A stretch of DNA of 64,000 bases from Patescibacteria group bacterium (GCA_044868145.1 JBIOWE010000004.1:333860-397859), one strand, 5' to 3'. Shown: positions 8,352-64,000, counted from the stretch's first letter. Notes: a model not told the origin generated them from the sequence alone. Numbers and translations are program-made.

Positions 8352-8355
8352 GCAT

Positions 8356-9879: not shown

Positions 9880-9924
9880 ATTCAAAATTCGAAGCTCGAA
9901 ATACAAAATTCGAAACAAATTCAA

Positions 9925-19449: not shown

Positions 19450-19476
19450 GTAGGTCGGGGCCAGGCCCCGACCTAC
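19450..19476. repeat. REP-like palindrome, copy 1 (GTAGGTCGGGGCCAGGCCCCGACCTAC)
   Basis: Perfect 12-bp arms around AGG with GTAG...CTAC termini, the form associated with RAYT transposases. It lies intergenic between the MFS gene and rsmA. Confidence 0.65.
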
Positions 19477-29271: not shown

Positions 29272-29275
29272 CGCG

Positions 29276-32053: not shown

Positions 32054-32055
32054 CC

Positions 32056-33402
32056 ATGGCATACATAGACGACATCGCACAAAAGTATAATGCGTTGCCT
32101 ATGGAAGTACGCACGAAACTGCAAACACAGGACGTTCGGCAGGAAATTTTCGGATTGGAAAGGCGGTACGCCGTGAAGCTGAATTTCTTGCTCATGCTCG
32201 TTTTGACGGGAGAATTGGCGATCGAAGATATTCCCGAATACATGCAAAAACGATTTCAGTTGACGGATGAAGACAGTATCGCTTTTAAAAAGGCGCTCAT
32301 TGCCCGCGTATTGAAAGCATTTCTCGAGCCCGAAGACTTGAAGCAGCTCACGCCGACAAATGAAATGAAAGATATACTGCAAGGCAAGCTTGTGCAAATT
32401 TTTGAGGGTACGGAAGAAGCGAAAGCGGAGTTCAACGAAAAGATGGCGTATGCTCTTGTCGCGGACGACGATGCGGAACCCGATGAACTTGCAAAGCTGT
32501 TATACGCGAATCAAGAACGTCTAACGCAAAAACGCCTAACACTGGAGGACAGGCCGCAAGAGCCTACCATCGCGAACTGGCTCAAGGACTTTATCCTTTT
32601 TGCCGGCGCGATGACGTTCGATAACGTGACGCTGACTCGCTATATGACCACGTCCGCAAACGTCCAAGTACTCGATCCAGGTGAGCGAGAGCGCGTGGCG
32701 AAACTGATGAAATTGTATCGAGCTGTGAAGTTCTATCCTGCTAGTATGCCCAACGACCCGAACGAATGGGAGTTTATTGCGGAAGAGCAGCAGGAAGAGT
32801 TGACAAAAACTCGCCCCGGCGCGGTTTTCACACCCTATTTCCCGTCGGCAGAAAGGATCCCCTCGCTTGGTGAGCGCTTTCGAGCGCACGAAAAAAAGTT
32901 TGAAACGATTCTCAAAAAAGAGGACGAGTTACTTGCGAGCACACAAGGAGACGTCGAGCGTATCAAGCGCGAGCTTGCAAACGCGGCGCGCAGTGGTGAT
33001 GAGGTAACACTTAGCGCGTGCATGCAGCTTCTCGCCCGCGCGGGCATGCTCATGACCATTCTGAAGCAACAACCCGCATGGCTTGATGCGACGCTTGCAT
33101 CAGTTCGTAGAAAATACGAATCGACGATTGGTAAAGTAGCCCTGGATCAACTTATTGAGAACGCAAAAATCAACCCGGTTTCCTTGCCGCTTCTTTCAGA
33201 ATTCCTTCAATATCTCTTGAAAGAGCGCGGCAAGATGAGTGAAAGCGAATCTGCGCTCGTCGGCGTGCATATTGGCCAAACCGTGCAAGGGGAAAAACAA
33301 ACCCTGGCGTTCGGGAACGAAGCAACGGGTGAATTTGAATGGGTGAAGAACCGCGTCGAGGGCGGCACGTTGGTGAGCGAGCTGACGCAAAACCCGTCAT
33401 AG
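32056..33402 (+). CDS. hypothetical protein (448 aa), last gene of the first T4SS-like operon
   Basis: Soluble, helical, no recognisable motif. Its start is 3 nt after the VirB6-like stop. Confidence 0.4.
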   Translation: MAYIDDIAQKYNALPMEVRTKLQTQDVRQEIFGLERRYAVKLNFLLMLVLTGELAIEDIPEYMQKRFQLTDEDSIAFKKALIARVLKAFLEPEDLKQLTPTNEMKDILQGKLVQIFEGTEEAKAEFNEKMAYALVADDDAEPDELAKLLYANQERLTQKRLTLEDRPQEPTIANWLKDFILFAGAMTFDNVTLTRYMTTSANVQVLDPGERERVAKLMKLYRAVKFYPASMPNDPNEWEFIAEEQQEELTKTRPGAVFTPYFPSAERIPSLGERFRAHEKKFETILKKEDELLASTQGDVERIKRELANAARSGDEVTLSACMQLLARAGMLMTILKQQPAWLDATLASVRRKYESTIGKVALDQLIENAKINPVSLPLLSEFLQYLLKERGKMSESESALVGVHIGQTVQGEKQTLAFGNEATGEFEWVKNRVEGGTLVSELTQNPS

Positions 33403-35324: not shown

Positions 35325-36002
35325 ATGGCAAAAGACGAAAAAAAACGAAAAGAAGCTTATTCAACCCAGCGTTATTTGGACATTTTGGAAATCAAAGACG
35401 ACTGTGTTGTTTTGAAGGATGGCACGCTCCGCGGGGTTATGCTGGTTTCGTCGATCAACTTTGCGCTCAAGTCCGAAGAAGAGCAGAATGCTGTTATATC
35501 CGGGTACATGCAGTTTTTGAACTCACTGGATTTTCCCATTCAGATCGTCGTTCAATCACGCAAATTGAATATTGACGAATACATTGAACGACTCAAAGAT
35601 ATCGAGAAGCGGCAAACGAATGATCTCTTACGCATCCAAACGCAAGAATATCGTCAGTATATCGGTGAACTTGTCGAACTATCGGATATCATGAGCAAGA
35701 AGTTTTATGTTGTCATTCCATTCGCACCCGGCAAAGGAGGCACGAAGAAATTCTTTTCCGTGTTCCGAGAAGCGCTCTCACCGACGTCGGTGATCCATTT
35801 GAAACAAAAAAAATTCGAAAAGTATCGGGACGAGCTTGGTAAGCGTGTCGGATACGTTTTGAGCGGACTTTCTTCAACCGGCTTGAATGCGGTTCAGCTT
35901 GACACCCAGGGTCTCATTGAGCTGTATTACGACACGTACAATCCGGAAATCGCGCCCCAACAAAAATTTGTGGAAGCGAATAAACTTAATCTTGAAGCAT
36001 AA
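35325..36002 (+). CDS. VirB4/TraE-like conjugative ATPase, N-terminal fragment (split gene)
   Basis: 225 aa. LDILEIKDDCVVLKDGTLRGVMLVSSINFALKSEEEQNAVISGYMQFLNSLDFPIQIVVQSRKLNIDEY matches the N-terminal region of Gram-positive VirB4 (PrgJ/TraE). It ends with a TAA 2 nt before the ATG of the next ORF. Confidence 0.6.
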   Translation: MAKDEKKRKEAYSTQRYLDILEIKDDCVVLKDGTLRGVMLVSSINFALKSEEEQNAVISGYMQFLNSLDFPIQIVVQSRKLNIDEYIERLKDIEKRQTNDLLRIQTQEYRQYIGELVELSDIMSKKFYVVIPFAPGKGGTKKFFSVFREALSPTSVIHLKQKKFEKYRDELGKRVGYVLSGLSSTGLNAVQLDTQGLIELYYDTYNPEIAPQQKFVEANKLNLEA

Positions 36003-36004
36003 TT

Positions 36005-37918
36005 ATGGTTGAATTTTTCCGAAAACGCACGCCATTGCCAACGGAGCCCCTTGGGCAGCTGACGTCCGAAGAGCAGCGTCGGCTCCGGGAGCAAACGATT
36101 GAGGAAAAAAAGGAAACTCTGGAAGCCGAGCAGGTGTACAGACGCGGTGTTGTCACCGTTCGGGATTTGATCGCGCCTTCGGCGATGAAGGTAGAACCAC
36201 GGTACATGGAGCTCAATGGCAGGTTTGTTCGGACGATTTTCGTCGTCGCCTATCCGCGCTACATTAGCGTTGGCTGGTTCGCGCCGATCATCAATTTAAA
36301 CACGCCGCTTGATATTTCAATGTTTTTTTACCCGCTTGGCTCCGAGGTCATTTTGAAGCAGCTAAGAAATAAAGTTGGCGCGTTGCAAGCGCAAATTCTC
36401 TCGGACGCGGAAAAAGGCGCGCCGCGCGATCCTATACGCGAAACTGCGCTTCGCGACATAGAAAAACTTCGCGACGACTTGACGCAAGGAATTGAGAAAT
36501 TTTTTCAATATGCGCTCTATGTAACGTTGTACGCGGATTCAAAGGAGCAGCTTGAACAAATTTCGGAAAAAGTGGAAACGCTGTTCGGAACCCGACTCAT
36601 TTATACCAAACGCGTTCTCTATCAAGCAGAGCAAGGTTTTAATTCAACCCTGCCCCTTGGAACGGACCAGCTCATGATTGCGTTTAACATGAATACGTCG
36701 CCATGCGCGTCGTCGTTTCCTTTTATTTCTTCCGAGCTTACGTCTGACAATGGTATTTTGTACGGTATTAACCGTCATAATAACAGTTTGATACTTTTCG
36801 ACCGGTTTTCGCTGCAAAACGCAAATTCCGTGGTGTTTGCGACGTCAGGCGCCGGCAAGAGTTACGCAATCAAACTCGAAGTGCTCCGCAGTATGATGCT
36901 CGGAACGGACGTTATTATTATTGACCCGGAACGCGAGTACAAATATTTATCCGATGCAGTAGGAGGGACGTACATAAACATCTCACTGAACTCGGAAAGT
37001 AAGATTAACCCCTTTGACTTGCCGAAAAATCCAGGCGACGAAAAGCCGGCAGACATCATTCGTTCGGCGGTCATTGCGCTCAAGGGTCTTGTTCGTTTGA
37101 TGCTCGGGGAGCTTTCCCACGAAGAGGACGCGATTGTTGATCGTGCGCTCATCGAGACCTATGCCAAAAAAGACATTACACCGGACGCGGACCTTTCCAA
37201 AGTCGAATCGCCTCTTATGAGCGACTTTCAGGAAGTGCTTTCCGGCATGGCTGGAGCGGACAATCTCGTTACGCGGCTGCGAAAGTTCACCGAAGGCACG
37301 TTTTCCGGGTTGTTCAATAGTCCGACAAACGTGGAGATTAATAATCAACTGGTTGTTTTCACTGTACGGGACTTGGAAGATGAGCTGCGACCTATCGGGA
37401 TCCAAATCATTATTGCGCATATTTGGAACGTCGTCCGCTCGCAACTGAAAAAACGCATTCTTGTTATTGACGAAGGATGGTGGCTGATGCAGCATGAAGA
37501 TTCGGCCAAGTTTATTTTCGCGCTCGTGAAGCGATGCCGAAAATATTACCTCGGCATTACGACGATTACGCAAGACGTCACTGACTTTTTACGGTCGCCG
37601 TATGGCCAAGCCATAGTGACCAACTCCTCCATTCAGTTGCTTATGAAACAGTCGCCCGCGGCCATTGATATCGTCGCGAAGACTTTTTTACTCACGGAGG
37701 GCGAACGGTACCTGCTCCTCGAGAGTAACGTTGGCGAGGGAATTTTCTTTGCGGGCGCCAAGCACGCCGCCATTAAGGTGGTTGCCTCCTACACCGAAGA
37801 TCAGGTGATTACGTCTGACCCGCGCCAGCTCTTAGAAATCGAGCAAGCAAAAAAGGAGTTTGAGCAACAGTTTGCAGAGCAAGGCGCTGAACGCCAGCCC
37901 CAGGCTGCCGCAACATAA
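36005..37918 (+). CDS. VirB4-like T4SS ATPase (central and C-terminal ATPase domains)
   Basis: 637 aa with Walker A FATSGAGKSYAIK and Walker B/helical region ILVIDEGWWLM. It continues the VirB4 N-region homology (GRFVRTIFVVAYPRYISVGWFAPIINLNTPLDISMFFYP). Confidence 0.8.
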   Translation: MVEFFRKRTPLPTEPLGQLTSEEQRRLREQTIEEKKETLEAEQVYRRGVVTVRDLIAPSAMKVEPRYMELNGRFVRTIFVVAYPRYISVGWFAPIINLNTPLDISMFFYPLGSEVILKQLRNKVGALQAQILSDAEKGAPRDPIRETALRDIEKLRDDLTQGIEKFFQYALYVTLYADSKEQLEQISEKVETLFGTRLIYTKRVLYQAEQGFNSTLPLGTDQLMIAFNMNTSPCASSFPFISSELTSDNGILYGINRHNNSLILFDRFSLQNANSVVFATSGAGKSYAIKLEVLRSMMLGTDVIIIDPEREYKYLSDAVGGTYINISLNSESKINPFDLPKNPGDEKPADIIRSAVIALKGLVRLMLGELSHEEDAIVDRALIETYAKKDITPDADLSKVESPLMSDFQEVLSGMAGADNLVTRLRKFTEGTFSGLFNSPTNVEINNQLVVFTVRDLEDELRPIGIQIIIAHIWNVVRSQLKKRILVIDEGWWLMQHEDSAKFIFALVKRCRKYYLGITTITQDVTDFLRSPYGQAIVTNSSIQLLMKQSPAAIDIVAKTFLLTEGERYLLLESNVGEGIFFAGAKHAAIKVVASYTEDQVITSDPRQLLEIEQAKKEFEQQFAEQGAERQPQAAAT

Positions 37919-37924
37919 ACATCT

Positions 37925-38509
37925 ATGAACAGAAAATATCTTCTTTTTCTCGGCATCTTCGTCGGTTTGCTCCTTATTGCCGCGGCCGTTTTATTTTTTT
38001 TGAATCGGCAGCCAGCGGCAAACCAGAATACCGGCAATCAGAATACAAATACCCAGATCGTGGTGAATACTAATGTCACCAATACCGCAACGAACGTGCA
38101 AGCCGTTAATGAGCAGGAGAAGACGAAGCTCGAATTAAGCCGGATCGCTCTTTCATTCGCTGAACGGTTTGGGACATATTCGAATCAGTCGGATTTTGAA
38201 AATGTCGAAAGCCTGAAAGTGTTCATGACCGGCAGCATGCAAACGTGGGCCGACGGATTTGTGGCCAGCGCGCGCCAGCAGAACGCCGACTCCTCAATTT
38301 ATTACGGTGTCACCACAAAAGTCATTACGTCAAAGAATGTCCGTTTTGACGAAACGCACGCGGATTTTGTCTTTACGACCCAGCGAATAGAATCAACCGG
38401 CACGACGGATAACAATCGAGTTTTTTTCCAGGATATTTCCATCAAGTTCGTGAAAGAAGGATCGCAATGGAAAGTAAACGAGGCAACGTGGCTTGATATT
38501 AAAGCTTAG
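37925..38509 (+). CDS. membrane-anchored protein, possible VirB8-like (NTF2-fold) component
   Basis: 194 aa with a single N-terminal TM (LLFLGIFVGLLLIAAAVLFFL), an Asn/Thr-rich linker and a roughly 130-aa globular domain. Its position after VirB4 suggests a PrgL/VirB8 analogue, but this is inference only. Confidence 0.3.
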   Translation: MNRKYLLFLGIFVGLLLIAAAVLFFLNRQPAANQNTGNQNTNTQIVVNTNVTNTATNVQAVNEQEKTKLELSRIALSFAERFGTYSNQSDFENVESLKVFMTGSMQTWADGFVASARQQNADSSIYYGVTTKVITSKNVRFDETHADFVFTTQRIESTGTTDNNRVFFQDISIKFVKEGSQWKVNEATWLDIKA

Positions 38510-38510
38510 T

Positions 38511-39095
38511 ATGGCGAACGACATCGATAGCCTGCAGTCCGGACGAAGCCCGGGTTCGCGCGAGGAGCAGAAAACGATCGCGCAACAGCTTGAAAAAGAA
38601 ACGGCGCGCAAGATGTACCTGAACCGCCGCGCAACAGAGCAAACAACGCTTCGCGAGCTGCCGTCGAGTCGAACAACAAAACCAGAACAAGAAGAAGCGC
38701 GGTCCGAGGAAGAAGAATCTAGCCAGTCGTTCGTTGAGAATGAAGACCAGTCGAATGTGTCGCAGGGCCAGGAACGATCCGTGGCCAGTTCTTTTCAGCA
38801 AAAACTACAGATGGCCCGACAGGTCGCGAGCAAGGAGGTAAAAACAGAGATGTCAGTTGCTGCCGAAGCTACCGCAAAGGCTGCATCACGAGCCGCTGTT
38901 ATGGCTGTGCGAGGCGCGGCGCTTGCCGTGATCAACGCAGTCGGCGCGGTTATAGGATTTATTGCGGGGTTTGGCTGGCCGGTGTTACTTGGAATTTTAA
39001 TAGTTATTGTGCTTGGCTTTCTCATAAGTGATCCAGTATCTGCTTCCAAACTTGGCGTGTGCTTCATTGTTGAAGCCCTGGGCTTTAGTTGCTGA
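38511..39095 (+). CDS. hypothetical protein with an acidic N-terminal region and a C-terminal two-helix hydrophobic hairpin
   Basis: About 195 aa from the ATG at 38511. The C-terminus reads AAVMAVRGAALAVINAVGAVIGFIAGFGWPVLLGILIVIVLGFLI. Confidence 0.35.
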   Translation: MANDIDSLQSGRSPGSREEQKTIAQQLEKETARKMYLNRRATEQTTLRELPSSRTTKPEQEEARSEEEESSQSFVENEDQSNVSQGQERSVASSFQQKLQMARQVASKEVKTEMSVAAEATAKAASRAAVMAVRGAALAVINAVGAVIGFIAGFGWPVLLGILIVIVLGFLISDPVSASKLGVCFIVEALGFSC

Positions 39096-39100
39096 TAGAT

Positions 39101-40075
39101 ATGAATCATCGAACCAGAATTTTCCTCTTTTTTCTTGCAATCTTTGTTCTTTCTCTTTTTGTATTGCCGCACGCAGCCTCCGCCCAACTCCAGACGCTCA
39201 CGGACGTCTGCAAAGTGACAAATGAAAAGGACGCGATCCACCTGAATGTCGGGTTTTCGGTACCGGGCGTCATTTTCGAACTGCCCGCGGGCAGCGGCGA
39301 ATTTTACGTGAAGAATTTCGGATGCTATATCGGCGGGTTTTATCGTTACTTTGCCGGCGTGGCTGGCATTCTCGCGGCCGTGCTTATCATGTGGGGTGGG
39401 TATAAATACGTTACATCGTTCGGCAACCCTAGTAGACTCTCCGATGCGAAAGACACGATTCAACAGGCGTTGATTGGGCTCGCGTTCGTGCTCGGCACAT
39501 ACATTATTCTCTACACTATTAATCCGAACCTTGTCATTCTGCAAACGCCACAGTTGCCTATCATTCCTTCCGTTGAGCTCACCAAATCTTACGACTGGGA
39601 AAATGTACGATTCTGTCGAGAAAAAGCACAGTTTACAACTGCCAGCTGCGGAGGAATCTTCAATGCGGGTAAGACTGATGAGTGCCGAATGGTCAGCAAC
39701 GGTTGCAAGAATTCGAACGGCATTTGCGTGGCGGCCAAGAACAGTTACGCTGGATTAACGCGACCAGCCGATCTAAAACAAGGTGATATTTTCATCAATT
39801 GTCAGGAGTCAATATTGTTGTCCTACACAAAACCCGGGGAGTCCGAGGAGAAAGAGAGAACCTTGGTTGGAGATCCGAACGTGGACTGTGGCTACATCAA
39901 AGATGATATCGGCGGTCTACATTTAACCGGAAATCGAGGCGTTGGCATGAAATGCCCAGCGGATAAATATGGATGTGTGATTATTAATGACGCCGGGTTC
40001 GTGATTTACGGAGCGGGAGACTTACAACCTGGCAATGGAATTATTGGAGCATTTCTCAATGCAACATGCTATTAG
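39101..40075 (+). CDS. secreted protein with a pilin-like two-helix membrane module and a Cys-rich C-terminal domain
   Basis: Signal peptide MNHRTRIFLFFLAIFVLSLFVLPHAASA. The module GGFYRYFAGVAGILAAVLIMWGGYKYVTSFGNPSRLSDAKDTIQQALIGLAFVLGTYIILYTINPNLV is paralogous to the N-terminal region of the VirB1-like protein at 41346. The C-terminal domain carries about 12 Cys. Confidence 0.5.
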   Translation: MNHRTRIFLFFLAIFVLSLFVLPHAASAQLQTLTDVCKVTNEKDAIHLNVGFSVPGVIFELPAGSGEFYVKNFGCYIGGFYRYFAGVAGILAAVLIMWGGYKYVTSFGNPSRLSDAKDTIQQALIGLAFVLGTYIILYTINPNLVILQTPQLPIIPSVELTKSYDWENVRFCREKAQFTTASCGGIFNAGKTDECRMVSNGCKNSNGICVAAKNSYAGLTRPADLKQGDIFINCQESILLSYTKPGESEEKERTLVGDPNVDCGYIKDDIGGLHLTGNRGVGMKCPADKYGCVIINDAGFVIYGAGDLQPGNGIIGAFLNATCY

Positions 40076-40089
40076 AATAATAACGTACT

Positions 40090-41346
40090 ATGCGTAGAAT
40101 TTTTGTCATCGCTGGCTTCGCACTCCTTGTGGTAGGCATTGGTATTGCCATTTATTTTGTATTTTTCCGCGGCGCTGGTGGACCCACGAATAACGCGAAC
40201 GTCGGAAACGCGAACACGAACATTGGCGGTTTTCCTGTCACCAACGGCAACGTGAACGGCTCCATTGTAAACTTTACGGTTAACGGAAACGTCAACGTGG
40301 GAGGTCCAATTACGAATGCAGTCTTGCCGGAAATAGATACCATCGCTCGGGGAGGAAAAACGCTCACGAACGATCTTTCCCAACAAAGCATCATGGCTCC
40401 GTCGATCGGGCCAGACGGCAAAAGCGTCGTGTTTTACGATCCGATCACCGGACTGTTTTATGAGCTGTCGCCTGACGGAAAAACGAAACGACAGCTTTCC
40501 GACCAACGTTTTCCGAACGCCGAGAAAATATCCTGGGCGCCAGACGGCACCCGCGCCATTGTTACGTTTCCGGACGGAAGCAAAGTGCTGTACGATTTTT
40601 CGACCAAGCAACAAGTAACGCTCCCGCGCGAATGGGACAACATTGTGTTTTCCGGCGATGGAACAAAAATAGGGTTTAAAGACTTGCAGGAAAACGTGGA
40701 TAACCGGTGGCTCTCAATTGCGAATCCGGATGGGTCAAGCGTGCAATCGATTGAGCCAATTGGCGACAAAGGGGACGACGTTCAGGTTGCCTGGTCGCCG
40801 ACGAGCCAGGTGATAGCTTTATTCCGCGAGGGCAGTTCGGGTTCAACCCAGGAAGTGTTTCCCATTGGGCAGCACGGTGAGAACTTTAAATCCTTTGCCG
40901 TGGATGGCCGGGGCTTTGAAGGCGCATGGTCTCCGAAGGGCGACCGCTTGCTCTATAATGTGTTTAACGCGGGTTCGGACTACAAACCGACCCTTTGGAT
41001 CGTGGACGCATCGGGCGATAACATCGGGAACAACAACCGCGCTCTGGGCGTGCAAACCTGGGCGAATAAGTGCGTTTTCTCGAGCGATAACGTCACGATA
41101 TTTTGTGCGGTGCCGAGCGATTTACCAGAGGGAGCTGCGTTGTATCCGGACATCGCTCAAAACGTGCCGGATACGTTTTATCGCATCAATACACAAACGG
41201 GTTTGAGGACGGTTCTCGCGCAACCCGTCAATGCTCAAGGCGGCGGTTCGTATACGGTTCGATCGCCTTTTCTATCCGAAGGTGAACAGAATTTGTACTT
41301 CACGGATTCGTTGAGCGGGCGCCTCTATACAATTCAATTAAAATAA
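40090..41346 (+). CDS. TolB-like PD40/WD40-type beta-propeller protein, membrane-anchored
   Basis: 418 aa with N-terminal TM and repeated SWAPDGTRAIV / VFSGDGTKIGF / AWSPTSQVIAL / AWSPKGDRLLY blades. Confidence 0.55.
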   Translation: MRRIFVIAGFALLVVGIGIAIYFVFFRGAGGPTNNANVGNANTNIGGFPVTNGNVNGSIVNFTVNGNVNVGGPITNAVLPEIDTIARGGKTLTNDLSQQSIMAPSIGPDGKSVVFYDPITGLFYELSPDGKTKRQLSDQRFPNAEKISWAPDGTRAIVTFPDGSKVLYDFSTKQQVTLPREWDNIVFSGDGTKIGFKDLQENVDNRWLSIANPDGSSVQSIEPIGDKGDDVQVAWSPTSQVIALFREGSSGSTQEVFPIGQHGENFKSFAVDGRGFEGAWSPKGDRLLYNVFNAGSDYKPTLWIVDASGDNIGNNNRALGVQTWANKCVFSSDNVTIFCAVPSDLPEGAALYPDIAQNVPDTFYRINTQTGLRTVLAQPVNAQGGGSYTVRSPFLSEGEQNLYFTDSLSGRLYTIQLK

Positions 41347-42356
41347 TGGTCATAAGATTTTCTTTTCGCAAGGCCGTTCTTATTGGGCTTGCATTGGTTT
41401 TTGCATTCGTTATGTTCAACGTCCTTGCGTTAGCCGCGCACGCTCAACAGGATACGTCAAAGGGCGCAACTTTTCGTCCGAACATCACTATTCCCGGCTC
41501 CAAGTTTATCGCAGGCCAAGAAGTCGTAATTAACGGTGATACCATCGGCGAATGGATCGCCGCGTTTTACGTATTTTTTGTCGGCATCGCCGGCATACTT
41601 GCCACAGTCATGATTATGTGGGGCGGCTACAAGTATATTACCTCATTCGGCAATGCAACGCGCACGCAGGGCGCAAAAGATACGATCACCCAGGCGCTCA
41701 TCGGTTTAGCAATGACGCTCGGCGCTTACATTATCCTCCTCACCATCAATCCGAACCTCGTGCAGTTTAAAAGCTTGACGTTGGCGCCGATTCCCTCTCA
41801 CGAACTTGGCGAGCGCGGGGAAGCAAGTCTCAAAGGCGCGGCGCACTGGGACGGCAATAACGTGGCGACCTACGACAATCTCTTGAGAGCTGCGGCGGAT
41901 AGCTACGGACTTGACCGCGATTGGATGAAAGCAATTATGCTTGTTGAGTCAGGCGGGAATCCGAACGCGGTGTCGCCCGCGCAGGCATGCGGGCTTATGC
42001 AGCTTCTGCCTTCCACGGCGAACTTGACGTGTGAGCAACTAAAGAATCCCGCAGCAAACATTGACGCGGCAGGGAAGTATTTGCGAAGCCTGACGAACCT
42101 GACGTGCCCGCAAAATGCAACGTTGAGAGACAATACGGCTGTTTCCTGTGATCCGAGAAAAACGAAATGTCGAAACGGCGATATTCATTACATCGTGGCC
42201 GCGTACAACGGTGGCGTTGGGGCGAACTGTTCAAGCGTTTCTTGCCCGGGCAGTACCTGGTGGGAATGCCCGGTGAACACAGGATTTGACGAAACGAGAA
42301 GTTACGTTCAACTGGTCCAAACCGCATACGACAAAATAAAGCTGAATGGGTGGTAG
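41346..42356 (+). CDS. VirB1-like lytic transglycosylase (SLT domain) with an N-terminal pilin-like membrane module
   Basis: 336 aa. The N-terminal module IAAFYVFFVGIAGILATVMIMWGGYKYITSFGNATRTQGAKDTITQALIGLAMTLGAYIILLTINPNLV matches that of 39101. The SLT catalytic region is DRDWMKAIMLVESGGNPNAVSPAQACGLMQLLPSTA (ES...GLMQ). Confidence 0.7.
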   Translation: MVIRFSFRKAVLIGLALVFAFVMFNVLALAAHAQQDTSKGATFRPNITIPGSKFIAGQEVVINGDTIGEWIAAFYVFFVGIAGILATVMIMWGGYKYITSFGNATRTQGAKDTITQALIGLAMTLGAYIILLTINPNLVQFKSLTLAPIPSHELGERGEASLKGAAHWDGNNVATYDNLLRAAADSYGLDRDWMKAIMLVESGGNPNAVSPAQACGLMQLLPSTANLTCEQLKNPAANIDAAGKYLRSLTNLTCPQNATLRDNTAVSCDPRKTKCRNGDIHYIVAAYNGGVGANCSSVSCPGSTWWECPVNTGFDETRSYVQLVQTAYDKIKLNGW

Positions 42357-55022: not shown

Positions 55023-55394
55023 TTAATTGGAGGGCTTTTTTTGACGGATCGAGGTAATAAAGCTATTAATTGCCTTGGCCAGATATTGGTACTTGTCGTC
55101 CAGTTCATCAAAGGTTTTCTTATCAATGTATTTTAGCCCTTGTGCTGCGGAAAGATGGCTCCTTGTTTCTTCGACTGATCCGCGAGCTATAACAAGAAGT
55201 TGGATGCGATCTTGATAGCCGTACCGTCCATGACTTTCTGCAATATTTGCCATAATGGATAGGGCGGATTTTTTTAATTGTGCAGTCAGCAAGAAAGTCT
55301 CTTCTTTTGGAAATTGCTTGCAAGCATTATAAACCCTAAGCAGAAGGGCGTATGCTTCTTGCCAAATTCTCAAATCCCGAAAAGAGTCAACCAT
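55023..55394 (-). CDS. four-helix-bundle protein (TIGR02436 family), copy 2
   Basis: 123 aa. DLRIWQEAYALLLRVYNACKQFPKEETFLLTAQLKKSALSIMANIAESHGRYGYQDRIQLLVIARGSVEETRSHL matches the family. It is flanked by CCAATTAACTG / CCGATTAACTGG inverted repeats. Confidence 0.75.
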   Translation of the reverse strand: MVDSFRDLRIWQEAYALLLRVYNACKQFPKEETFLLTAQLKKSALSIMANIAESHGRYGYQDRIQLLVIARGSVEETRSHLSAAQGLKYIDKKTFDELDDKYQYLAKAINSFITSIRQKKPSN

Positions 55395-56048: not shown

Positions 56049-56528
56049 TTATTTGATATTGATAAGATAAATAAGATCCGCGTCGACGACAAGTTGTGCA
56101 TTTGCATTTTTCGACGACTGGACGATAACCGTATTGCCGTTATGCAGGTCCGCTTTCTGTACTTCGGTTGTTTGTGAATAAAACGCGTCCGTGTTGGTCC
56201 TCTTGTTTGTCGTATTGATGCGTACGATCCTTGTTGCGTTCGTTATGTTGACCGTAAATGAATAGGAAGTTCGCTTGGCAGTGGATGGATCGGTTACCTG
56301 CACTTTCACGGCTAACGCGTTATCGTTCACGTCGGTAATTTCTCCGCGCCATTGGTACATGGGTTGCTGCGTTTGCTGCGACGCTATGTAAGATTCTATG
56401 GTTTTAACCGTTTGTTCTTCATTCTTTTGCGATCGAATTTCAGTCAGAAGCAGCACAACGACCAAAGCGGCAAAGGTAATGAGGATCGTAATCTCCAATA
56501 AAAATTTTTTATTTTCTTTTCTTGACAT
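56049..56528 (-). CDS. hypothetical membrane-anchored protein
   Basis: About 160 aa from the ATG at 56528 (MSRKENKKFLLEITILITFAALVVVLL). Its start codon overlaps the -35 of the divergent promoter. Confidence 0.4.
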   Translation of the reverse strand: MSRKENKKFLLEITILITFAALVVVLLLTEIRSQKNEEQTVKTIESYIASQQTQQPMYQWRGEITDVNDNALAVKVQVTDPSTAKRTSYSFTVNITNATRIVRINTTNKRTNTDAFYSQTTEVQKADLHNGNTVIVQSSKNANAQLVVDADLIYLINIK

Positions 56529-56550
56529 TTTCAAGAAATCTTGGTACAAT
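56522..56550 (+). promoter_or_regulatory. near-consensus sigma70 promoter (TTGACA-17-TACAAT) for the first YVTN-propeller paralog
   Basis: ttgaca at 56522-56527, a 17-nt spacer, and tacaat at 56545-56550. Confidence 0.55.
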
Positions 56551-56637
56551 GAATCAGTACGAAAAACGGTTTCATGAGTTGATTATCACGTATTTTCGTG
56601 ATTCTGTCAATTTATTTACCATTTTAAAACAAACAGA

Positions 56638-59600
56638 AGTGCGGGAGAGACGAACAAAAGAAAAAACTGTATCAGCATGGGTGCGTGTTTCTCTCTTTTC
56701 TTCTTTTTTGATTGCCATAATCGTTTTCTTTTCAAGCGCTGGAGTCTCCGCGTTAATTCAAGAGCCAACCGACGTACCACCCGGAGACAACCTCTCCGGT
56801 TTTCTTGATGTTGGGCCATTGAGTCAGGCAAAGCGGGGCGCGCTTCGCCTCGGAAGCAACGTAACGTCCAGCACACAGCTTGATGTCAACGGGTCAGGGT
56901 ACCTCAATGCGCTGACCGTCGATCAGAATCTCACCGTGAATGGCAATACGCTTTTTGTTGACTCGCAAAATAATCGGATTGGACTTGGGACGTTGACGCC
57001 TGCGTATACGCTTGACGTCCTCGGGGGTGGCGTGAGCGTTACGACGCCAGTTTCCGGTGCATGGGGAGTCGCCGTCTGGAGCAGTGACCATGATGCTAGC
57101 TATGGAAAAGGCGCTTCTGGAATCCAAGCGACAAACAATCATGGTGACGGTTCCGGCGTGTGGGGATCGAGTGCATCCACATATGGTTTGTTTGGCGAAA
57201 GTACGAATGGTTCCGGCGTTATTGGTCGCGTAACAGGACTAGCCGGCGGATACGGCGTCTACGCGATGAATGCAAACGTCACAACAGGTTGGGCAGGATA
57301 TTTTACGGGACGTCTTTTTTCATCGAACGACGTGATTGGCCGCAGATTTTTGCCGGAACAATTGCAATCGTCGCTTGTGCCATTCGCGCAAGGCCAGGAA
57401 CTTTCCACGCGGAGCACGTATAATTTATACAAACCGCGCGATCTGGCATTCGACGGAACAAACATCTGGGTGTTGCGCGATCAATTCAGCGGCGAAGTTT
57501 CCAAAGTCCGTCCTGAAGACGGTTTGAAGCTTTCCGACGTTTTGCTTGATGATCCCCAAGGCCGCGAGCCAACGCGATTGATTTACGCCGCGAACTACCT
57601 TTGGACGTCGAATAAAAGCGGCACGAATGTGACGCGTATTGACCCTGCGACAAGCACGCAAACGCATTTTTCAACTGTACCGATTGGTGTCAACTGCGCT
57701 GATCTCACCCAATCGGAGGGTACGTATTATGTTGGTTGTAACCCGACTGCGCTGGTGTATGACAGCGCCACTGCGGGCGGCCCATATGTGTGGGTGTCGA
57801 GTTATACTGACCCGCAGCCGTCTAACGGTACGCTTGGCACGAGCAGTATTGTTCGCATCCGCTTGTCCGACGGAGTGCGCACAGGATTCCTTTTGCAAAA
57901 TTCGGGCAGCGTCCTCGGGGTGAATCCCGTGGCCATTGCGTTTGACGGAACAAATATTTGGACAGTCAATTTTGGCATTCACGGAAGTATCGGTACGCCA
58001 AATGCTCCTGTCACCTTGGCTGACAGCGTTACCAAGTTCCAGGCATCGGACGGTGCGTTCCTCGGGACGTTTTCGCTCGGTACGTGCAACTACCCCATTG
58101 ATATCGTTTACGAAAATGTAGGCAGTCGCCTGTGGGTAGTCTGCAATCAAATGCGTTCATGGGAGAATAATGTGATTCGTTTTAATCCATCTTCGAATGC
58201 CGCGGACGGGGCGTTTTTGTCTGGTGGAGATTATCCCAACCGCATTGCCGTGGACAGCATTACCTCGACCGGTCCGTATGTCTGGGTAACGCATCTCCAA
58301 GGCGTCTCGCGACTCAAAGCATCCGACGGATCTGTTGTGGGACCTTTTACAACGGGCGCAAGTCCCGGCGGGATGACCACGGAGAAAACGTACACGCAAG
58401 GTGCGACAACGTATACGTATCTCTGGACCGCCGATAATCTGTCCTATCAACTTTCCAAGTTCAAGTCGAGCGATGGTGTGCTACAAGGCAATTTTGTGAT
58501 CGAGGGAACCGAGGTCGCAGGAATGACTTTTGACGGAACATACGTATGGACCGCGAACAAAAATTCACGCACGGTCTTTAAAATACGCGTGGCTGACGGC
58601 CAACGGGTTGGCGCCTATACGCTGAATGCGCCGAGCCCACGCCAAGTGTTGTACGACGGTCAAAACGTTTGGGTAACACATTTTTACAGTTATACGCAAA
58701 CGTCAATTTCAAAATTGCGCGCGAGTGATGGCACATTACTCTTTGAAAAAGTATTGACACAAGCGCATGCTGATCCGAAAGGTATGTTCCTTGATACGGT
58801 TACGTCCGGTGGACCGTATGTATGGATCCTCGTGGCAGGTTGGGGTATTCCGAATGAAAGCCATCTTATCCGCTACAAAATTTCCGACAATAGCGAAACA
58901 CGTTTCAACCTGGGTCTCAATACCGCATTGAACCCCCAAGCGCCCGCAAGTATGGTATATGACGGGCAATATCTTTGGATAAGCGCATTCTATGATCCGG
59001 ATCCCAATACCATCAATACCGCGGGCGAGACGTCGAGCCTCGTTCGGGTAGATATTCAGAGTTGTTCAGGCTCATGCTCGATCTTCATAACAACTCCTCC
59101 GTCAGGCCATTACTTACCTCTCGGTATTGCATACGACGGTAAATATCTTTGGACCGCTAATTCTGGGGTAGGCAGCGTGAGTAAGTGGAATCCTAACGGC
59201 GATGGCACCGTAACAGAAATCGCTAATTATCCTGTGAATGTGGATACGTCGGCTGGCCAGCCAGTAGACAACCCGCGCCAAGTTGTTTTTGACGGAACGT
59301 TTGTGTGGGTGGGACTCACGAAGCGAATAGACACGAACAATTATCTTTCCATTCTCCGAGCATCCGACGGAGCAGTTGTTAAAAACAATATCCAGTATGC
59401 GAGCTACGTTTCGCCCGCGAGTTTTGCGTTCGATGGAAGTTTTGTCTGGCTCGGCGGGGATTATTTGAAGGGACTGTACAAATTTTACTCTGGTGCTGGA
59501 TATGGTAAAGAAATTATCGAAGGGGTGGTCCGCCTGCAGAACAGCGTACCGGGTGAATTGGACACTGGCAATATCAATGTGAGCGGAATAGGGACAATTG

Positions 59601-59782
59601 GCGGAAACGCGATTGTGGGCGCAAACGTCATCGCTTCGAGCAACGCATGGGGAGGCGCATCAGATACGCTTGTCAATGTCGCTGGACAAGGGACATATAA
59701 CTGTCCCGACGGTTATTTCGTTAAAGATATTGTGGTGGACGGGAGCAATAACCCGACGCAATTAAAATGCAGGCCATTGTAA
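56638..59782 (+). CDS. secreted tail-fibre-like / YVTN-type beta-propeller repeat protein, paralog 1
   Basis: Up to 1086 aa. The start is uncertain: the GTG at 56638 gives MRERRTKEK + hydrophobic signal-anchor, and the ORF-track start lies inside the promoter. It has an N-terminal Gly-rich repeat region (QLDVNGSGYLNALTVDQNLTVNGNTLFVDSQNNRIGLGT...), at least 9 repeats of the motif [AV]FDG[TSQK]x[IVL]W[VT], and the C-terminal tail CPDGYFVKDIVVDGSNNPTQLKCRPL. Confidence 0.6.
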
Positions 59783-59795
59783 TAACCATATCATG

Positions 59796-59822
59796 GTAGG
59801 TCGGGGCCAGGCTCCGACCTAC
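59796..59822. repeat. REP-like palindrome, copy 3 (GTAGGTCGGGGCCAGGCTCCGACCTAC)
   Basis: Near-identical to copy 1. It sits just upstream of paralog 2, and the ORF-track ATG at 59793 immediately abuts its GTAG. Confidence 0.65.
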
Positions 59823-59834
59823 GAAGTCACTGAA

Positions 59835-61838
59835 ATGCAAAAACGAATGAGACAAATGAAAGCTGTATACGCAAAACCCCTTGTTATTATGGGTATGGCT
59901 TCGGTCATAATCGGAATGTCGTTTATTTTACACGCGACGCAAGCCGCGTGGGTTGACCCCGGATCTCCTGCGCCGCAGGACAACATTTATCAGCTTATTA
60001 ATATTGGTTCAACTGATCAGGTACGACAAGGTAAACTGCTTCTCAGCCGAGATTATAAACCGGAAGAGACGTTAACGCTGAGCTACCCGCTTGAAGTTGT
60101 CGGACAGCCGCTTGCCACGGGGTTTAACGTGTCTGGTCTGCTTACCCTGGACGGAAATTTGATCGTTGACACAAACACACTGTATGTAGACAGCACGAGC
60201 AACCTCATCGGCATAGGCCTTGCTCCTGACCCTGCCTACAAGCTGACTATTACAGGTGGTGGAAACGGATTGCGCATCGGCGGCGGTTCAGGGGTCGCTG
60301 GTCCAGCATTGAACGTGAGCGCAGTTGGCAACAGTGCGATTTACGCAAAATCACTTGGGTCAACAGCGACGTACGCAGCGATCTTTGGCGAAGGTGTCAC
60401 GGGCGATGGAATCAACGGAATCAATAACTATGCAGGTGCAGTAACAACAAATATCCCCGCGGGCGCGCGAGGAGCCAACACTGGTGCCAGCCCTGGAGCG
60501 CCGGGAGTTCTTGGGACGACTGCAAGCGCAACTGGCGCAAGCGTGCGTGGTGAACTAACGGATCTAATGAACATCAACGGTTGGGCAGGCTATTTTGCCG
60601 GACGCGTGCGCGCGTCGTCGGACGTCGTTGGTAATAAATTTATTCCATCCGCGTTCCAACAATCCGTGCTTCCATATATCACCGATTATTCGCTGGGGGA
60701 TTACGCTGCGAGCACTTCCCCGTCTAGCCTTGCGTTCGATGGCAGTTCCGTTTGGGTGGCGAACGCTGGCTCGACGAACGTTTCCAAAATCCGCGCTTCA
60801 GACGGAAAAAAGATATTCGACGTGAATATGGGCTTTACCCCGCTCGACGTTGTGTTCGATGGCCAAAATGTCTGGGTATCGTATAACAACAGCGGTGGAA
60901 AATTGGCAAAGCTGAACCCGCAAGATGGTTCTATCGCACTGACGATTGATACCTCGCCGCGGTCGGACCTTCAAAATCTGCTCATTACGTTCGATGGAAC
61001 GCTGAAATATATTTGGGCAGCGTCGTCGAGCGGGAATGAGGTGCGACGGTATGCCGTTGATGGCAGCAGTCTCTGCTCGTATGGCACTAATCTCTCAAAT
61101 CCTCAAGGACTCGCCTACGATGGTACAAACATTTGGATAGCAAGTAGAAGCAACAATACGGTGCACCGCATTCAATCCAGTTGTGCGGTAAGCAATTTTC
61201 TCTCCGGCTCGAATCAAGTCGCCGTGAATGCGCCGAACAGACTCCTGTTCGACAACACGAATATGTGGGTGGTGAGTGACGCTGCGTCGGGAACGGGCAA
61301 CGTTACACGGATTTCATCGAGTGGCGCCACGACGTCTCACTCCACTGCGGTTGCAAGCGCGTTTGACTTGTCGTTCGACGGATCATTTGTCTGGATTACG
61401 CACAACAGCGGCACGATCGTTCGAATGAGCGCTCAAACGGGCCAGGCCGTCAAAACGTTCGATGCGAATGGCGCGTCCGCAAACAATGGCCGAGGTATTG
61501 TCTATGATGGCACATACATGTGGATTGGCTATGACGCTGGAACGACAATTTCAAAATACGTCACAGGAACCGGCTGGTCGCAGCCCGACCTTGCTGGCTA
61601 TCTTTTTTTGCAAAACGTTAGTCCATTTATTACGCAAACCGGCAGCTTCAATATCTCCGGCACTAGTGTTATCGGCACCTCACTGACTGTCGCGGGCAAT
61701 CTCGATGCGACGGCTAATACTTGGAATGGGATCGATGCAACACCTGCGCCGGGCAGCGGGTGTTTGAATGGACAATTCGTTAAAGGATTTACGTTGACGG
61801 GCTCTGGAATTGTGAATTTGATATGTAGACCATTATAA
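59835..61838 (+). CDS. secreted tail-fibre-like / YVTN-type beta-propeller repeat protein, paralog 2
   Basis: About 667 aa from MQKRMRQMKAVYAKPLVIMGMASVIIGMSF (signal-anchor). It has a Gly-rich N-region, FDG..VW repeats (LAFDGSSVWVAN, VVFDGQNVWVSY, LAYDGTNIWIAS, LSFDGSFVWITH, IVYDGTYMWIGY) and the tail CLNGQFVKGFTLTGSGIVNLICRPL. Confidence 0.6.
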   Translation: MQKRMRQMKAVYAKPLVIMGMASVIIGMSFILHATQAAWVDPGSPAPQDNIYQLINIGSTDQVRQGKLLLSRDYKPEETLTLSYPLEVVGQPLATGFNVSGLLTLDGNLIVDTNTLYVDSTSNLIGIGLAPDPAYKLTITGGGNGLRIGGGSGVAGPALNVSAVGNSAIYAKSLGSTATYAAIFGEGVTGDGINGINNYAGAVTTNIPAGARGANTGASPGAPGVLGTTASATGASVRGELTDLMNINGWAGYFAGRVRASSDVVGNKFIPSAFQQSVLPYITDYSLGDYAASTSPSSLAFDGSSVWVANAGSTNVSKIRASDGKKIFDVNMGFTPLDVVFDGQNVWVSYNNSGGKLAKLNPQDGSIALTIDTSPRSDLQNLLITFDGTLKYIWAASSSGNEVRRYAVDGSSLCSYGTNLSNPQGLAYDGTNIWIASRSNNTVHRIQSSCAVSNFLSGSNQVAVNAPNRLLFDNTNMWVVSDAASGTGNVTRISSSGATTSHSTAVASAFDLSFDGSFVWITHNSGTIVRMSAQTGQAVKTFDANGASANNGRGIVYDGTYMWIGYDAGTTISKYVTGTGWSQPDLAGYLFLQNVSPFITQTGSFNISGTSVIGTSLTVAGNLDATANTWNGIDATPAPGSGCLNGQFVKGFTLTGSGIVNLICRPL

Positions 61839-61844
61839 ATATTG

Positions 61845-61873
61845 ACCTTGGTCAGGGCGAGGCCCTGACCTAC
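61845..61873. repeat. REP-like palindrome, copy 4 (variant: GGTCAGGGCGAGGCCCTGACCTAC)
   Basis: Perfect 9-bp arms with a CTAC 3' end, sharing the GCC..GACCTAC architecture. It sits just upstream of paralog 3. Confidence 0.5.
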
Positions 61874-61885
61874 GAGCGTGCTGAA

Positions 61886-63844
61886 ATGAAAAATCGAAAG
61901 CAACAACAGAAAAGAATAAAGAAATTTGCAGTTGTCTGCTTCATGTTTAGCGTTGTCGCAATTGTGTTGTTATTTGGATTCGGCATTGCCCGCGGTCAAT
62001 GGCAAGAGCCGACGGTCCCGCCGCCCGGATCAAATGTATCAGCGCCGATCAGTGTTGACGATCTAGTGGAAGCGAAGCAAGGCGGGCTGCTCATTGACCC
62101 AACGTATGTACTGGGAAGCGCCTTCTCATTACGTGGTGGTTCAAAGCTCGATGTCCGTGGCGAGGTGAAAGTTACGGGCACCTCCGCGGAGGTCGGTGGC
62201 GGCCTACAGATAGACAATTCGAGCGACGATTCTCTTGTTGTCTCGGGTACGCAAGTAGGTATTGGCACGGATGCGTTCGGTGTGGGGTACAAACTGACCG
62301 TAAATGGCGGCGGCATTGGCATTGGTTCGGAGGCGACGCCAGTGAGTAGTGACGGCGTGTATGCCTACAGCAATAATAACTGGGGGATTATCGCCGCCAG
62401 TACGGATGCTTCGGGCCGGGGCGCGGCATACGGCGAATATGCAGCCGGGTACGGCGTGCACGGCAAGAGTACTGCCGGCGCTGGCGTTATGGGTCAGTCC
62501 GCGGTGGGTTACGGCGTGTATGCGCACACAGCAAACGGCGGCACAACGTTACTCGGCGTGAATACGCTCACCGCCGGCAATTTCTGGGCGGGATATTTCG
62601 TGGGCAAACTCGGCGCAAGCGATGAAGTCGTTGGCGCGAAATTTTTGCCGACAAAATTGCAAAACTCACTCGTGCCGTACACGGTTGGTTGGCGGCAAAC
62701 ATTTACAACGGCCGTCGATGGTCCCGCGAACCTCGCGTTTGACGGCACGTACATCTGGGCCGCGAACGTGAACAGCACGACGGTTTCGAAGATTCGCGCG
62801 AGCGACGGGGTGAAAGTAACGGACGTGACCATTGGCAATGGAGTTCTTGACGTGGTGTTTGACGGAAGTTTTGTCTGGGTGTCTCGCTCCGGCGCATCGA
62901 ACCAGTTGGCAAAAGTTAATCCGTGGACTAATGCGATCGTCGCAACCTATGGCATTGACGCGAATGCGGCGAATCTACTTGTAACATCAGAAGGTGCGAA
63001 CACGTTTATCTGGTACGCGTCTACGTCAACGAATGCGGTACGCAAGTTGAACGCGAACGGCGTGCTGCAATGTTCGGCATCCGGACTCTCAACGCCGCGC
63101 GGGCTCGCGTACGACGGGATAAATGTGTGGGTTGCGAACAACGGAGCAAACAATGTTCTACGCATAAACTCAACATGCGGCAGTGTGGGCTCGTCTGTCG
63201 CTGTGACCGCACCGTTCAGACTCGCCTTTGACGGTTCTTACATGTGGGCGACAACGCGCAACGCCAGCTCGACAAACAACGTTACGAAAATATACGGCGC
63301 TGATGGCGTGATTGCGGGAACGTATTCAACGGGCGTGGCCCAGGCGAATGATTTAGCGTTCGACGGAACATTCTTCTGGGTGACGCACGATACCGCGGTT
63401 GTACGCATAGGCGCTGGCGACGGAACCGTGTATCCGGCGTTGACCAACCCGGGCGGTAACGCGTCAGGGGTCGTGTTCGACGGCACATACGCGTGGGTCG
63501 GGAAAGGATCAGGTAATGCGGTTGATCGCTATTACTCTGGCTCTGGCTGGGGTCATACCGACCCTTCAAGCATGGTCCAACTGCAAAGCTCGACGCCAGG
63601 CACTGCTCAAATCGGAGGATTCGCCATCACAGGGTCGGCCACGCTTGGCGGAAGCTTACAAGTCAACACAGGCGATCTGTCCGTGACCGGCAATACCTGG
63701 GGTGGGACAGCTGATCAATCAACTAGCGTTTCCGGAAATTCAGGAACAAATTCCTATAATTGCTCAACGAACGGATATTTCGTGAAAGGCATTGAGGTGA
63801 ACGCGTTCGGGCAAATCGTCAACTTTTTCTGTAGGCCACTATGA
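61886..63844 (+). CDS. secreted tail-fibre-like / YVTN-type beta-propeller repeat protein, paralog 3
   Basis: 652 aa with MKNRKQQQKRIKKFAVVCFMFSVVAIVLLFGF (signal-anchor), a Gly-rich N-region, FDG..W repeats (LAFDGTYIWAAN, VVFDGSFVWVSR, LAYDGINVWVAN, LAFDGSYMWATT, LAFDGTFFWVTH, VVFDGTYAWVGK) and the tail CSTNGYFVKGIEVNAFGQIVNFFCRPL. Confidence 0.6.
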   Translation: MKNRKQQQKRIKKFAVVCFMFSVVAIVLLFGFGIARGQWQEPTVPPPGSNVSAPISVDDLVEAKQGGLLIDPTYVLGSAFSLRGGSKLDVRGEVKVTGTSAEVGGGLQIDNSSDDSLVVSGTQVGIGTDAFGVGYKLTVNGGGIGIGSEATPVSSDGVYAYSNNNWGIIAASTDASGRGAAYGEYAAGYGVHGKSTAGAGVMGQSAVGYGVYAHTANGGTTLLGVNTLTAGNFWAGYFVGKLGASDEVVGAKFLPTKLQNSLVPYTVGWRQTFTTAVDGPANLAFDGTYIWAANVNSTTVSKIRASDGVKVTDVTIGNGVLDVVFDGSFVWVSRSGASNQLAKVNPWTNAIVATYGIDANAANLLVTSEGANTFIWYASTSTNAVRKLNANGVLQCSASGLSTPRGLAYDGINVWVANNGANNVLRINSTCGSVGSSVAVTAPFRLAFDGSYMWATTRNASSTNNVTKIYGADGVIAGTYSTGVAQANDLAFDGTFFWVTHDTAVVRIGAGDGTVYPALTNPGGNASGVVFDGTYAWVGKGSGNAVDRYYSGSGWGHTDPSSMVQLQSSTPGTAQIGGFAITGSATLGGSLQVNTGDLSVTGNTWGGTADQSTSVSGNSGTNSYNCSTNGYFVKGIEVNAFGQIVNFFCRPL

Positions 63845-64000
63845 AGAAAAATTTTTACCGAGCTTCAGCTCAGGGTGCAAGAATTATGGCTTTAGCCATT
63901 ACGAAGCATGCTCAATAAGATAAATCCATATTGGCCAAATAATACTACCTATTTCTTAACTGGCTCTACCTTCCTCCACTATCCTTATTTTAAAGAAGAT

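Follow-up and report, generated by a model that had tools for sequence, protein, structure and literature searches.

Fibre-like adhesins and extracellular β-propellers of the NHL/YVTN type are each well known. Such propellers (COG3391, ‘YncE-like’) are built of four-stranded blades of ∼42 residues and occur in extracellular settings in the surface layer protein of Methanosarcina mazei (1l0q) and in the sensor domain of Mycobacterium tuberculosis PknD. The MAT fibres of Bdellovibrio bacteriovorus, which lives on other bacteria, are surface proteins of ∼650–1500 amino acids (aa) that combine a signal peptide, a conserved β-rich domain of ∼130 aa directly after it, a phage-tail-fibre-like stalk and modular binding domains, with several paralogs per genome (Caulton et al. 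2024, PMC10769870). Patescibacteria live attached to hosts (bioRxiv 10.1101/2025.01.22.634366; PMC12206443), and host recognition and attachment by ultrasmall episymbionts are largely unknown (PMC12206443). Here, a stretch of 64,000 nucleotides (nt) from a Patescibacteria group bacterium (GCA_044868145.1 JBIOWE010000004.1:333860-397859), called the window below, is shown to carry three consecutive plus-strand genes, P1, P2 and P3, whose products embed propellers between two fibre-like segments. They constitute a lineage-restricted and so far undescribed family, with three modules unmatched by any Pfam or NCBIfam model. On balance, P1–P3 are probably, if by no means certainly, Sec-secreted surface binding proteins in which propellers serve as ligand-binding heads on a conserved, possibly trimeric stalk. 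No new principle is involved; the locus offers testable candidates for proteins of surface recognition in a lineage that has been little studied.

An open reading frame (ORF) listing of the window places the three genes where a preliminary description of this DNA had put them, and a family profile finds exactly three copies. P1 covers 56639–59782 (1047 aa from GTG 56639; the frame is open from 56522, which gives 1086 aa from TTG), P2 covers 59835–61838 (667 aa from ATG 59835; the ORF 59793–61838 would encode 681 aa) and P3 covers 61886–63844 (652 aa). The true start of P1 is most likely GTG 56639, because TTG 56522 and ATG 56549 lie upstream of or inside the promoter; this GTG is aligned to the N-terminus of the P1 ortholog in L004, one of six related metagenomic loci used for comparison (L001, L004, L012, L013, L016 and L014/L015). 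Likewise, P2 most likely starts at ATG 59835, since the 14-codon extension (MVGRGQAPTY...) is itself a palindrome of the P1–P2 spacer. The spacers are 52 nt (P1–P2) and 47 nt (P2–P3) long, and the three genes are presumably co-transcribed as one operon.

The shared architecture emerges from the alignment of nine full-length members, with residues numbered as in P3. Residues 1–37 comprise a basic N-terminus, a hydrophobic core of 19–21 residues and an AxA-type site right before a conserved Trp, in all members. This points to a long cleavable Sec signal peptide of Gram-positive/monoderm style rather than to the signal-anchor proposed earlier. Residues 38–150 begin with the conserved mature N-terminus W-x-E-P-x3-PP-x2-N...Q-x-K-x-G-x-L and continue with L-x-V-D-T-D-T-L-Y-V-D...V-G-I-G-T-x2-P-x2-K-L-x-V-x-G-G. 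Three to six repeats of G-[VI]-x-G-x-S... follow in residues 151–232, where the spacing of the Gly repeats peaks at 10–12 residues. The best conserved block of the family is a connector at residues 233–268, with the consensus W-A-G-Y-F-x-G-R-L...V-V-G-x-K-F-L-P-T-x-L-Q-N-S-L-V-P-Y and a mean pairwise identity of 60% (40% in the conserved N-terminal region). A seven-bladed propeller (residues 269–555), a second short stalk (residues 556–606) and a tail with two Cys (residues 607–652) complete the protein. No Pfam or NCBIfam model matches the mature N-terminus, the WAGYF connector or the tail.

On the DNA, P3 thus divides into signal peptide (61886–61996), N-terminal stalk with Gly repeats and connector (61997–62689), propeller (62690–63550), C-terminal stalk (63551–63703) and Cys–Cys hairpin tail ending in CRPL (63704–63841). 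In P2, approximate borders are 59835–59945 for the signal peptide, followed by the stalk, ∼60696–61556 for the seven-bladed propeller and 61557–61835 for the C-terminal stalk and CRPL tail. In P1, equally approximate, the signal peptide (56639–56752) and the N-terminal stalk (to ∼57415) precede two seven-bladed propellers (∼57416–59473) and the C-terminal stalk with its CRPL tail (59474–59779). The N-terminal stalks measure 181, 213 and 197 residues in P1, P2 and P3 by our own count. Modelled by AlphaFold2 as a monomer, the stalk shows short strands every 10 residues at a predicted local distance difference test (pLDDT) score <50, which is compatible with an obligate oligomeric β-helix and proves nothing.

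The resemblance to fibres lies in a motif of ∼40 residues, TLYVDS..N.VGIGT..P..KL. The preliminary description had seen it elsewhere, in the segment GYGVYA...WAGYF...LQNS, which has no phage match at E ≤ 1; the motif that does provide the link is located upstream of it. P1 (E 3e-7) and P2 (E 2.5e-5) match phrog_5906, which has no assigned function, and a second match is to the annotated tail fibre (gp39) of Pelagibacter phage HTVC168P, with E 4e-4 by tblastn and 2e-9 in pairwise comparison and an hhalign probability of 96.5% across 38 columns. Apart from this motif nothing else aligns with these phage proteins and, unlike phage fibres, P1–P3 are encoded by chromosomal, syntenic genes and are Sec-dependent, with no virion context. 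A weak match (E 0.025) concerns 8ol4, the tip of the MAT fibre Bd2439. The matched stretch of Bd2439 belongs to a part described as trimeric β-helix, the reported site of the capping-loop motif V-G-[GN]-small-x2-P-x3-L (PMC10769870). The sequence VGIGT-x2-P-x2-KL is present in all members of the family, but is offset by one residue from the published motif.

The comparison with MAT fibres can be extended to the overall design. As interpreted here, P1–P3 resemble them in being surface proteins of similar size that carry a signal peptide, in the conserved region behind it, in their modular binding domains and several paralogs per genome, and in a phage-tail-fibre-like stalk with a loop motif of the VG.G...P...L type. 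The differences are as clear. In MAT fibres the C-terminal tip varies (S74 chaperone, TNF-like, C-type lectin and novel sandwiches), whereas here the C-terminus is invariant and the middle modules vary. The heads in P1–P3 are β-propellers, of which none is mentioned in the main text of the MAT paper (PMC10769870). Homology is undetectable beyond ∼40 residues, a trimer of P1–P3 is a proposal, and a life on other bacteria is presumed for the source organism. By the criteria tested, the family falls outside the S74/MAT group, with no S74 domain and a likeness at the level of motifs. Collectively, a fibre reading of the stalk is plausible but only partly supported.

The propeller is the best understood module. 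Its seven blades carry the signature [AV]-[FY]-D-G-x3-W...K-[IL]-x3-D-G, with [FY]DGxxxW present in seven copies in P2 and in six clear copies plus a degenerate one in P3, at a spacing of 39–45 aa overall and of 40–45 aa in P2. In P1, nine regular-expression matches and five degenerate blades found by eye give ∼14 blades, read as two propellers. AlphaFold2, run on an 83-sequence alignment, models residues 270–555 of P3 as a propeller with pLDDT >90, and Foldseek matches seven-bladed propellers with a probability of 1.00 (target-normalised TM-scores of 0.59 for 1l0q and 0.76–0.80 for Vgb). The periodic, propeller-forming nature of the repeat suggested in the preliminary description is thereby borne out. 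Its assignment to the YVTN type is correct at the level of the superfamily, as seen in the matches of the family profile to the PDB (Pizza6, E 1.4e-19; 1l0q, 7.8e-18; Vgb, 1.2e-10; PknD, 4.3e-9), but not at that of the curated model TIGR02276, for which P3 alone gives a score, of 13.7 bits against a cutoff of 27.85. The Pizza6 designed propellers derive from the PknD NHL domain. The Pfam NHL and YVTN models have no match at E ≤ 1 in P1–P3. On profile and model evidence, the module belongs to the NHL/YVTN superfamily as a divergent member. Every invariant column falls within the structural motif of each blade (F-D-G...W and K...D-G), and therefore a role as scaffold or binding surface is favoured over a conserved active site. 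P1–P3 share their predicted extracellular setting with 1l0q and PknD; fibre-like segments are lacking in these two proteins and in Vgb lyase of Staphylococcus aureus, whereas in P1–P3 the propeller is embedded between two of them.

The second short stalk follows the pattern Y-S-G-x-G-x-G-x-T-D-L...L-Q...Q-x-G-x-F-x-I-x-G...N-x-W-G-G and leads into the tail, C-x2-G-x-[FY]-[VI]-K-x-[IV]...C-R-x-L, which provides the last residues of the protein. A C-[RK]-x-L terminus ends 66 of the 257 collected proteins; among them are members of 630–2100 aa that differ in the domains preceding it (for example BNR-like blocks or YYRWWNGS repeats). Both Cys of the tail are invariant in a 40-sequence alignment. 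In the AlphaFold2 model of the last 147 residues, the tail forms a hairpin (pLDDT 86–93) plus one further strand, with no counterpart in Foldseek (best E 3.7), so that a C1q/TNF-like or foldon-like C-terminal fold is unsupported. In the loci scanned (the window, L001 and L004), the tail is confined to the three family genes. The idea that it is a new terminal tag of this Patescibacteria-type lineage, acting either as a foldon-like nucleus that registers a trimer or as a sorting or anchoring signal read by some envelope machinery, is speculative and rather unlikely. Three C1q genes also lie in tandem and, by analogy, a trimer registered by the tail could be a P1–P2–P3 heterotrimer, because P1–P3 are presumably co-transcribed and, of the five related loci that are informative, four contain three family genes. 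The unequal lengths of the N-terminal stalks and the locus L014/L015, with only two family genes, speak against it.

The preliminary description rightly saw three tandem paralogs with one architecture. Over the shared layout, BLASTP gives 36% identity for P2 and P3 (full length, E 1e-111) and 28% for P1 with either P3 (E 1e-48) or P2 (E 1e-36), the paralogs being overall 28–37% identical. It had also named an assembly artefact as one alternative. An assembly duplication is ruled out by this divergence and by the absence of long near-identical DNA tracts between P1, P2 and P3. A recent duplication or gene conversion is rejected as well, the repeats between genes being only the 30–52 nt blade motif at 62–83% identity. 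P1 scores 620–690 bits against g1 of L001 and L004 and ≤190 bits against other genes. Orthology gene for gene and by position is clear only with these two nearest relatives, and this one-to-one pairing implies that the paralogs predate the lineages. Judged by their sequences, P1, P2 and P3 are true, old paralogs with no recent burst of duplication. A strong divergence of the propeller between conserved ends, as earlier proposed, holds in the wider family, where the propeller is the most variable region (32%), but not for P2 and P3, in which it is the best conserved long region (44%) and the N-terminal parts reach 27–32%.

A profile search of 1.84 billion representatives returned 1771 matches at E ≤ 1e-30, mostly to the propeller only; the N-terminal module together with the propeller occurs in several dozen clusters, many of them also with the tail. 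A search with P3 of species-representative genomes gave only a distant Bryobacteraceae propeller. Among the related loci, L001, L004, L012 and L013 have three family genes each, followed by a giant protein, while L014/L015 has two, followed by a 581-aa non-family protein. Upstream, on the minus strand and opposed to the family genes, L004, L012 and L013 carry HtpX-(23S-IVP)-LemA and a small gene; beyond these, L012 also has ClpC, as does the window. In L016, LemA and the small gene precede a family gene; the contig ends after the start of a second family gene, and another ORF is cut by the contig end. L001 shows the same promoter pair as the window, and its array is followed by the giant protein and then by pilM.

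Within this conserved frame the family proteins diverge. Where relatives have ClpC, HtpX or LemA, these are 70–76% identical to their counterparts in the window, as opposed to 37–41% for the family proteins in L001 and L004 and 26–33% in L012 and L013. By these comparisons the family evolves far faster than its neighbours, which fits surface interaction proteins and may reflect either relaxed constraint or positive selection. With ≤41% aa identity among paralogs and orthologs, synonymous sites are saturated, and the near-identical contigs L001–L003 differ at one base or none. Hence, of the rapidly diversifying adhesin family in the preliminary description, the fast divergence is supported; on the other hand, the paralogs are old, the array recurs in relatives and an adhesin role is a matter of interpretation.

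As an observation in its own right, the P1 and P2 orthologs of L004 (L004:1872-6242 and 6320-9883) contain large extra blocks just before the CRxL tail, made of DGGxSW BNR-like repeats in one and of YYRWWNGSxWV repeats in the other. The latter repeats are also found in the giant protein of L001. The sequences thus point to an exchange of modules between genes of the locus.

The operon is headed by a promoter-like site at 56522–56550 on the plus strand (TTGACA, a 17-nt spacer and a TG-extended TACAAT, 11 of 12 positions matching), and its −35 box at 56522 overlaps the start codon of the small divergent gene. A facing site at 56582–56610 on the minus strand (TTGACA-17-GATAAT, likewise 11 of 12) would serve this small gene and falls within the P1 leader. 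None of the four hexamers varies across five loci (the window, L001, L004, L012 and L013), amid intergenic sequence with 60% mean column identity, and this invariance therefore gives phylogenetic support for both promoters. The strong promoter previously noticed before P1 is thus confirmed by its near-complete match and its conservation in relatives. The two promoters face each other across ∼30 nt, and the predicted 5′ ends of the P1 and small-gene transcripts overlap by ∼20 nt.

In the mechanism proposed for P1–P3 as surface binding proteins, the three genes would be read as one operon from the strong conserved promoter. The signal peptide would be cleaved at AxA, exposing the mature N-terminus W-x-E-P...PP..N...Q.K.G.L. 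The first ∼230 mature residues would then form a fibrous, possibly trimeric β-helical stalk by which the protein is retained on the cell, and the seven-bladed propellers, one in P2 and P3 and two in P1, would act as ligand-binding heads. A disulfide might join the two Cys of the tail, which would cap, nucleate or tether the assembly. Finally, the hairpins after the P1 and P2 stops may modulate mRNA stability or relative expression, as extrapolated from REP (repetitive extragenic palindromic) biology in Escherichia coli. By analogy, the function would resemble that of Bdellovibrio MAT fibres and of phage receptor-binding proteins. Several traits suit host interaction: synteny, a strong promoter, about twice the evolutionary rate of the neighbours, and a phage/MAT-like stalk with swappable propeller heads. 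Other facts weigh against this function. NHL/YVTN propellers are also found in enzymes (Vgb lyase) and in surface layer (S-layer) proteins; the likeness to phage and MAT fibres is limited to ∼40 residues, and the MAT match taken alone is non-significant; P1–P3 have no Pfam match to Peptidase_S74, and neither phage proteins nor PDB entries match the C-terminus; the episymbiont setting of the source organism is itself presumed.

The same propellers can be accommodated in other functions. In a structural envelope (S-layer or sheath), they would tile the surface, as in the YVTN-PKD surface layer protein of Methanosarcina. The 1l0q propeller is indeed among the best matches in sequence and fold, the near-consensus conserved promoter suggests high expression, and the chromosomal position is fixed across related genomes. 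Yet the Pfam scan finds neither PKD nor other known lattice domains, and the array provides three different paralogs instead of one dominant subunit. Moreover, the domain content of orthologs is highly modular (BNR-like and other repeat blocks; 650–1600 aa) and divergence is very fast compared with neighbours, features that fit interaction proteins better than a lattice. We regard an envelope lattice as unlikely. The match to Vgb lyase, by profile (1e-10) and by Foldseek, and database relatives of the propeller named ‘sugar lactone lactonase YvrE’ or ‘glutamine cyclotransferase’ raise the question of secreted enzymes (lyase, lactonase or hydrolase of the Vgb or SMP-30/YvrE type) that would act on polymers of the host or the environment. 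Here the invariant positions belong to the blade motif only, and no asymmetric catalytic set is conserved. In addition, no enzyme family model is matched in the Pfam and NCBIfam scans, and enzymes of the Vgb/YvrE type have nothing equivalent to the conserved stalks and tail. An enzymatic role is improbable.

Tip adhesins of the PilY1 or PilX2 kind, mounted on type IV pili, come to mind since in L001 the array and the giant protein are followed by pilM, and since saccharibacterial PilX2, with a non-canonical signal, is a seven-bladed propeller adhesin candidate (PMC12206443). PilX2 is described, however, as RCC1-type and not NHL/YVTN. P1–P3 have no prepilin-type N-terminus (G/FTLxE is absent) and show instead an AxA site with a Pro-rich segment behind it, the PilC/PilY1 family is unmatched in the Pfam scan, and the genes next to the array in the window include none for pili. 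A place at the pilus tip is thus quite improbable. That the genes are prophage remnants, encoding tail fibres or receptor-binding proteins, is very improbable indeed, even though P1–P3 have the ∼40-aa motif in common with a phage tail fibre and phrog_5906 and propellers of the COG3391 type also exist in phage proteins. Further phage genes are missing nearby, the neighbours being ClpC, HtpX, LemA, HisRS and RecG; synteny of the locus on the chromosome extends to related genomes; Sec signal peptides, carried by P1–P3, are absent from virion proteins; and the remainder of the protein has no phage match. The surface-binding function thus remains the one preferred here. Whatever the function, models of the N-terminus, the WAGYF connector and the CRxL tail could annotate dozens of ‘hypothetical’ proteins.

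The palindromes noticed earlier before P2 and P3 are real and REP-like. The copy GTAGGTCGGGGCCAGGCTCCGACCTAC lies at 59796–59822, starting 13 nt behind the P1 stop codon and ending 12 nt short of the P2 start, and a diverged hairpin, GGTCAGGGC-GAG-GCCCTGACC, at 61850–61870 (no strand is assigned to these elements). Both are followed by TACGAR-N..-CTGAAATG. Their predicted folding energies are −23.3 kcal/mol (z −4.2) and −18.8 kcal/mol (z −3.0), respectively; the hairpins are GC-rich, start 11–13 nt past a stop codon and have no T-tract. A third copy at 19450–19476, identical to the first at 26 of 27 positions, is located 3 nt after the stop of a major facilitator superfamily (MFS) transporter gene, between unrelated genes. 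This amounts to three copies per 64 kb, all intergenic, with 0 expected by chance. An Rfam scan over the window finds three tRNAs only and nothing at the hairpins. Exact copies are present on five metagenome contigs, at intergenic positions; on two of these contigs (L008:2182-2208 and L009:1985-2011) the copy is inside an ORF that matches Y1_Tnp/IS200 (E 3.5e-9 and 5e-9). Within the window, the link to Y1 is a possible Y1-like gene start at 63908 (homolog E 0.034), and no complete RAYT (REP-associated tyrosine transposase) is seen.

For a dispersed element of this kind, ‘REP-like’ is a fair label by sequence, and the Y1 matches suggest a REP/RAYT-type system in the lineage, with an unusual placement. 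As with proteobacterial REP elements and their RAYT (Y1), a short palindrome sits in spacers just after stop codons; lineage and sequence differ, and in L008 and L009 the palindrome is within the Y1_Tnp-like frame and does not flank it. In E. coli, a stable REP hairpin near a stop codon may protect the upstream mRNA or lower the translation of the upstream gene. Independently, L004 and L001 contain a repeated unit of ∼115 nt in the spacers after genes 2 and 3 (L004:9884-10000, L004:12020-12138 and L001:9885-10000). It has three hairpins (CCCAGCG...CGCTGGG, GGGG...CCCC and GCACGCT..AGCGTGC) and is unrelated in sequence to the palindrome of the window.

The small divergent gene (56049–56528, minus strand) encodes a protein of 159 aa with an N-terminal transmembrane segment and no Pfam match. 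In the window, L004, L012, L013 and L016, this gene and the array are arranged head to head, and its membrane-anchored product may be a functional partner of P1–P3. The gene diverges fast, with 28% identity to its counterpart in L004 and no BLAST match to those of L012 and L013.

At 55023–55394 on the minus strand, 1.2 kb from the array, lies a 23S-rRNA-IVP or bAvd-like four-helix-bundle gene. This Avd-like gene prompted the idea of diversification driven by a diversity-generating retroelement (DGR), which is probably not at work: the window contains no long direct repeat involving P1–P3 and no pair of template and variable repeats, and no reverse transcriptase is encoded by the ORFs scanned.

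Elsewhere in the window are a VirB4-like ATPase, two T4SS_pilin proteins (PF18895), a lytic transglycosylase of the SLT type, recG, a comF-like gene and tRNA synthetases; none of the scanned ORFs encodes a relaxase. A VirB4 cluster that lacks a relaxase and adjoins recG and comF has been reported for Patescibacteria, specifically for Magasanikiibacteriota (bioRxiv 10.1101/2025.01.22.634366). For the leucyl-tRNA synthetase (LeuRS) of the window, the closest sequences other than itself share 56% identity, and the named matches belong to mixed phyla. Upstream of the ATPase, the two T4SS_pilin proteins and the transglycosylase, three consecutive large ORFs of 2626, 956 and 448 aa (21391–33402 and 35325–42356) are essentially devoid of domain matches. 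At the other end, 64 nt after P3, a plus-strand gene begins at 63908 with MLNKINPYWPNNTTYFLTGSTFLHYPYFKED and runs past the end of the window (63908–64000). It resembles L015:5908-6177, whose own Y1_Tnp/IS200-like match is weak. In L001 and L004, the giant protein of 2800–3000 aa occupies the position of this gene.

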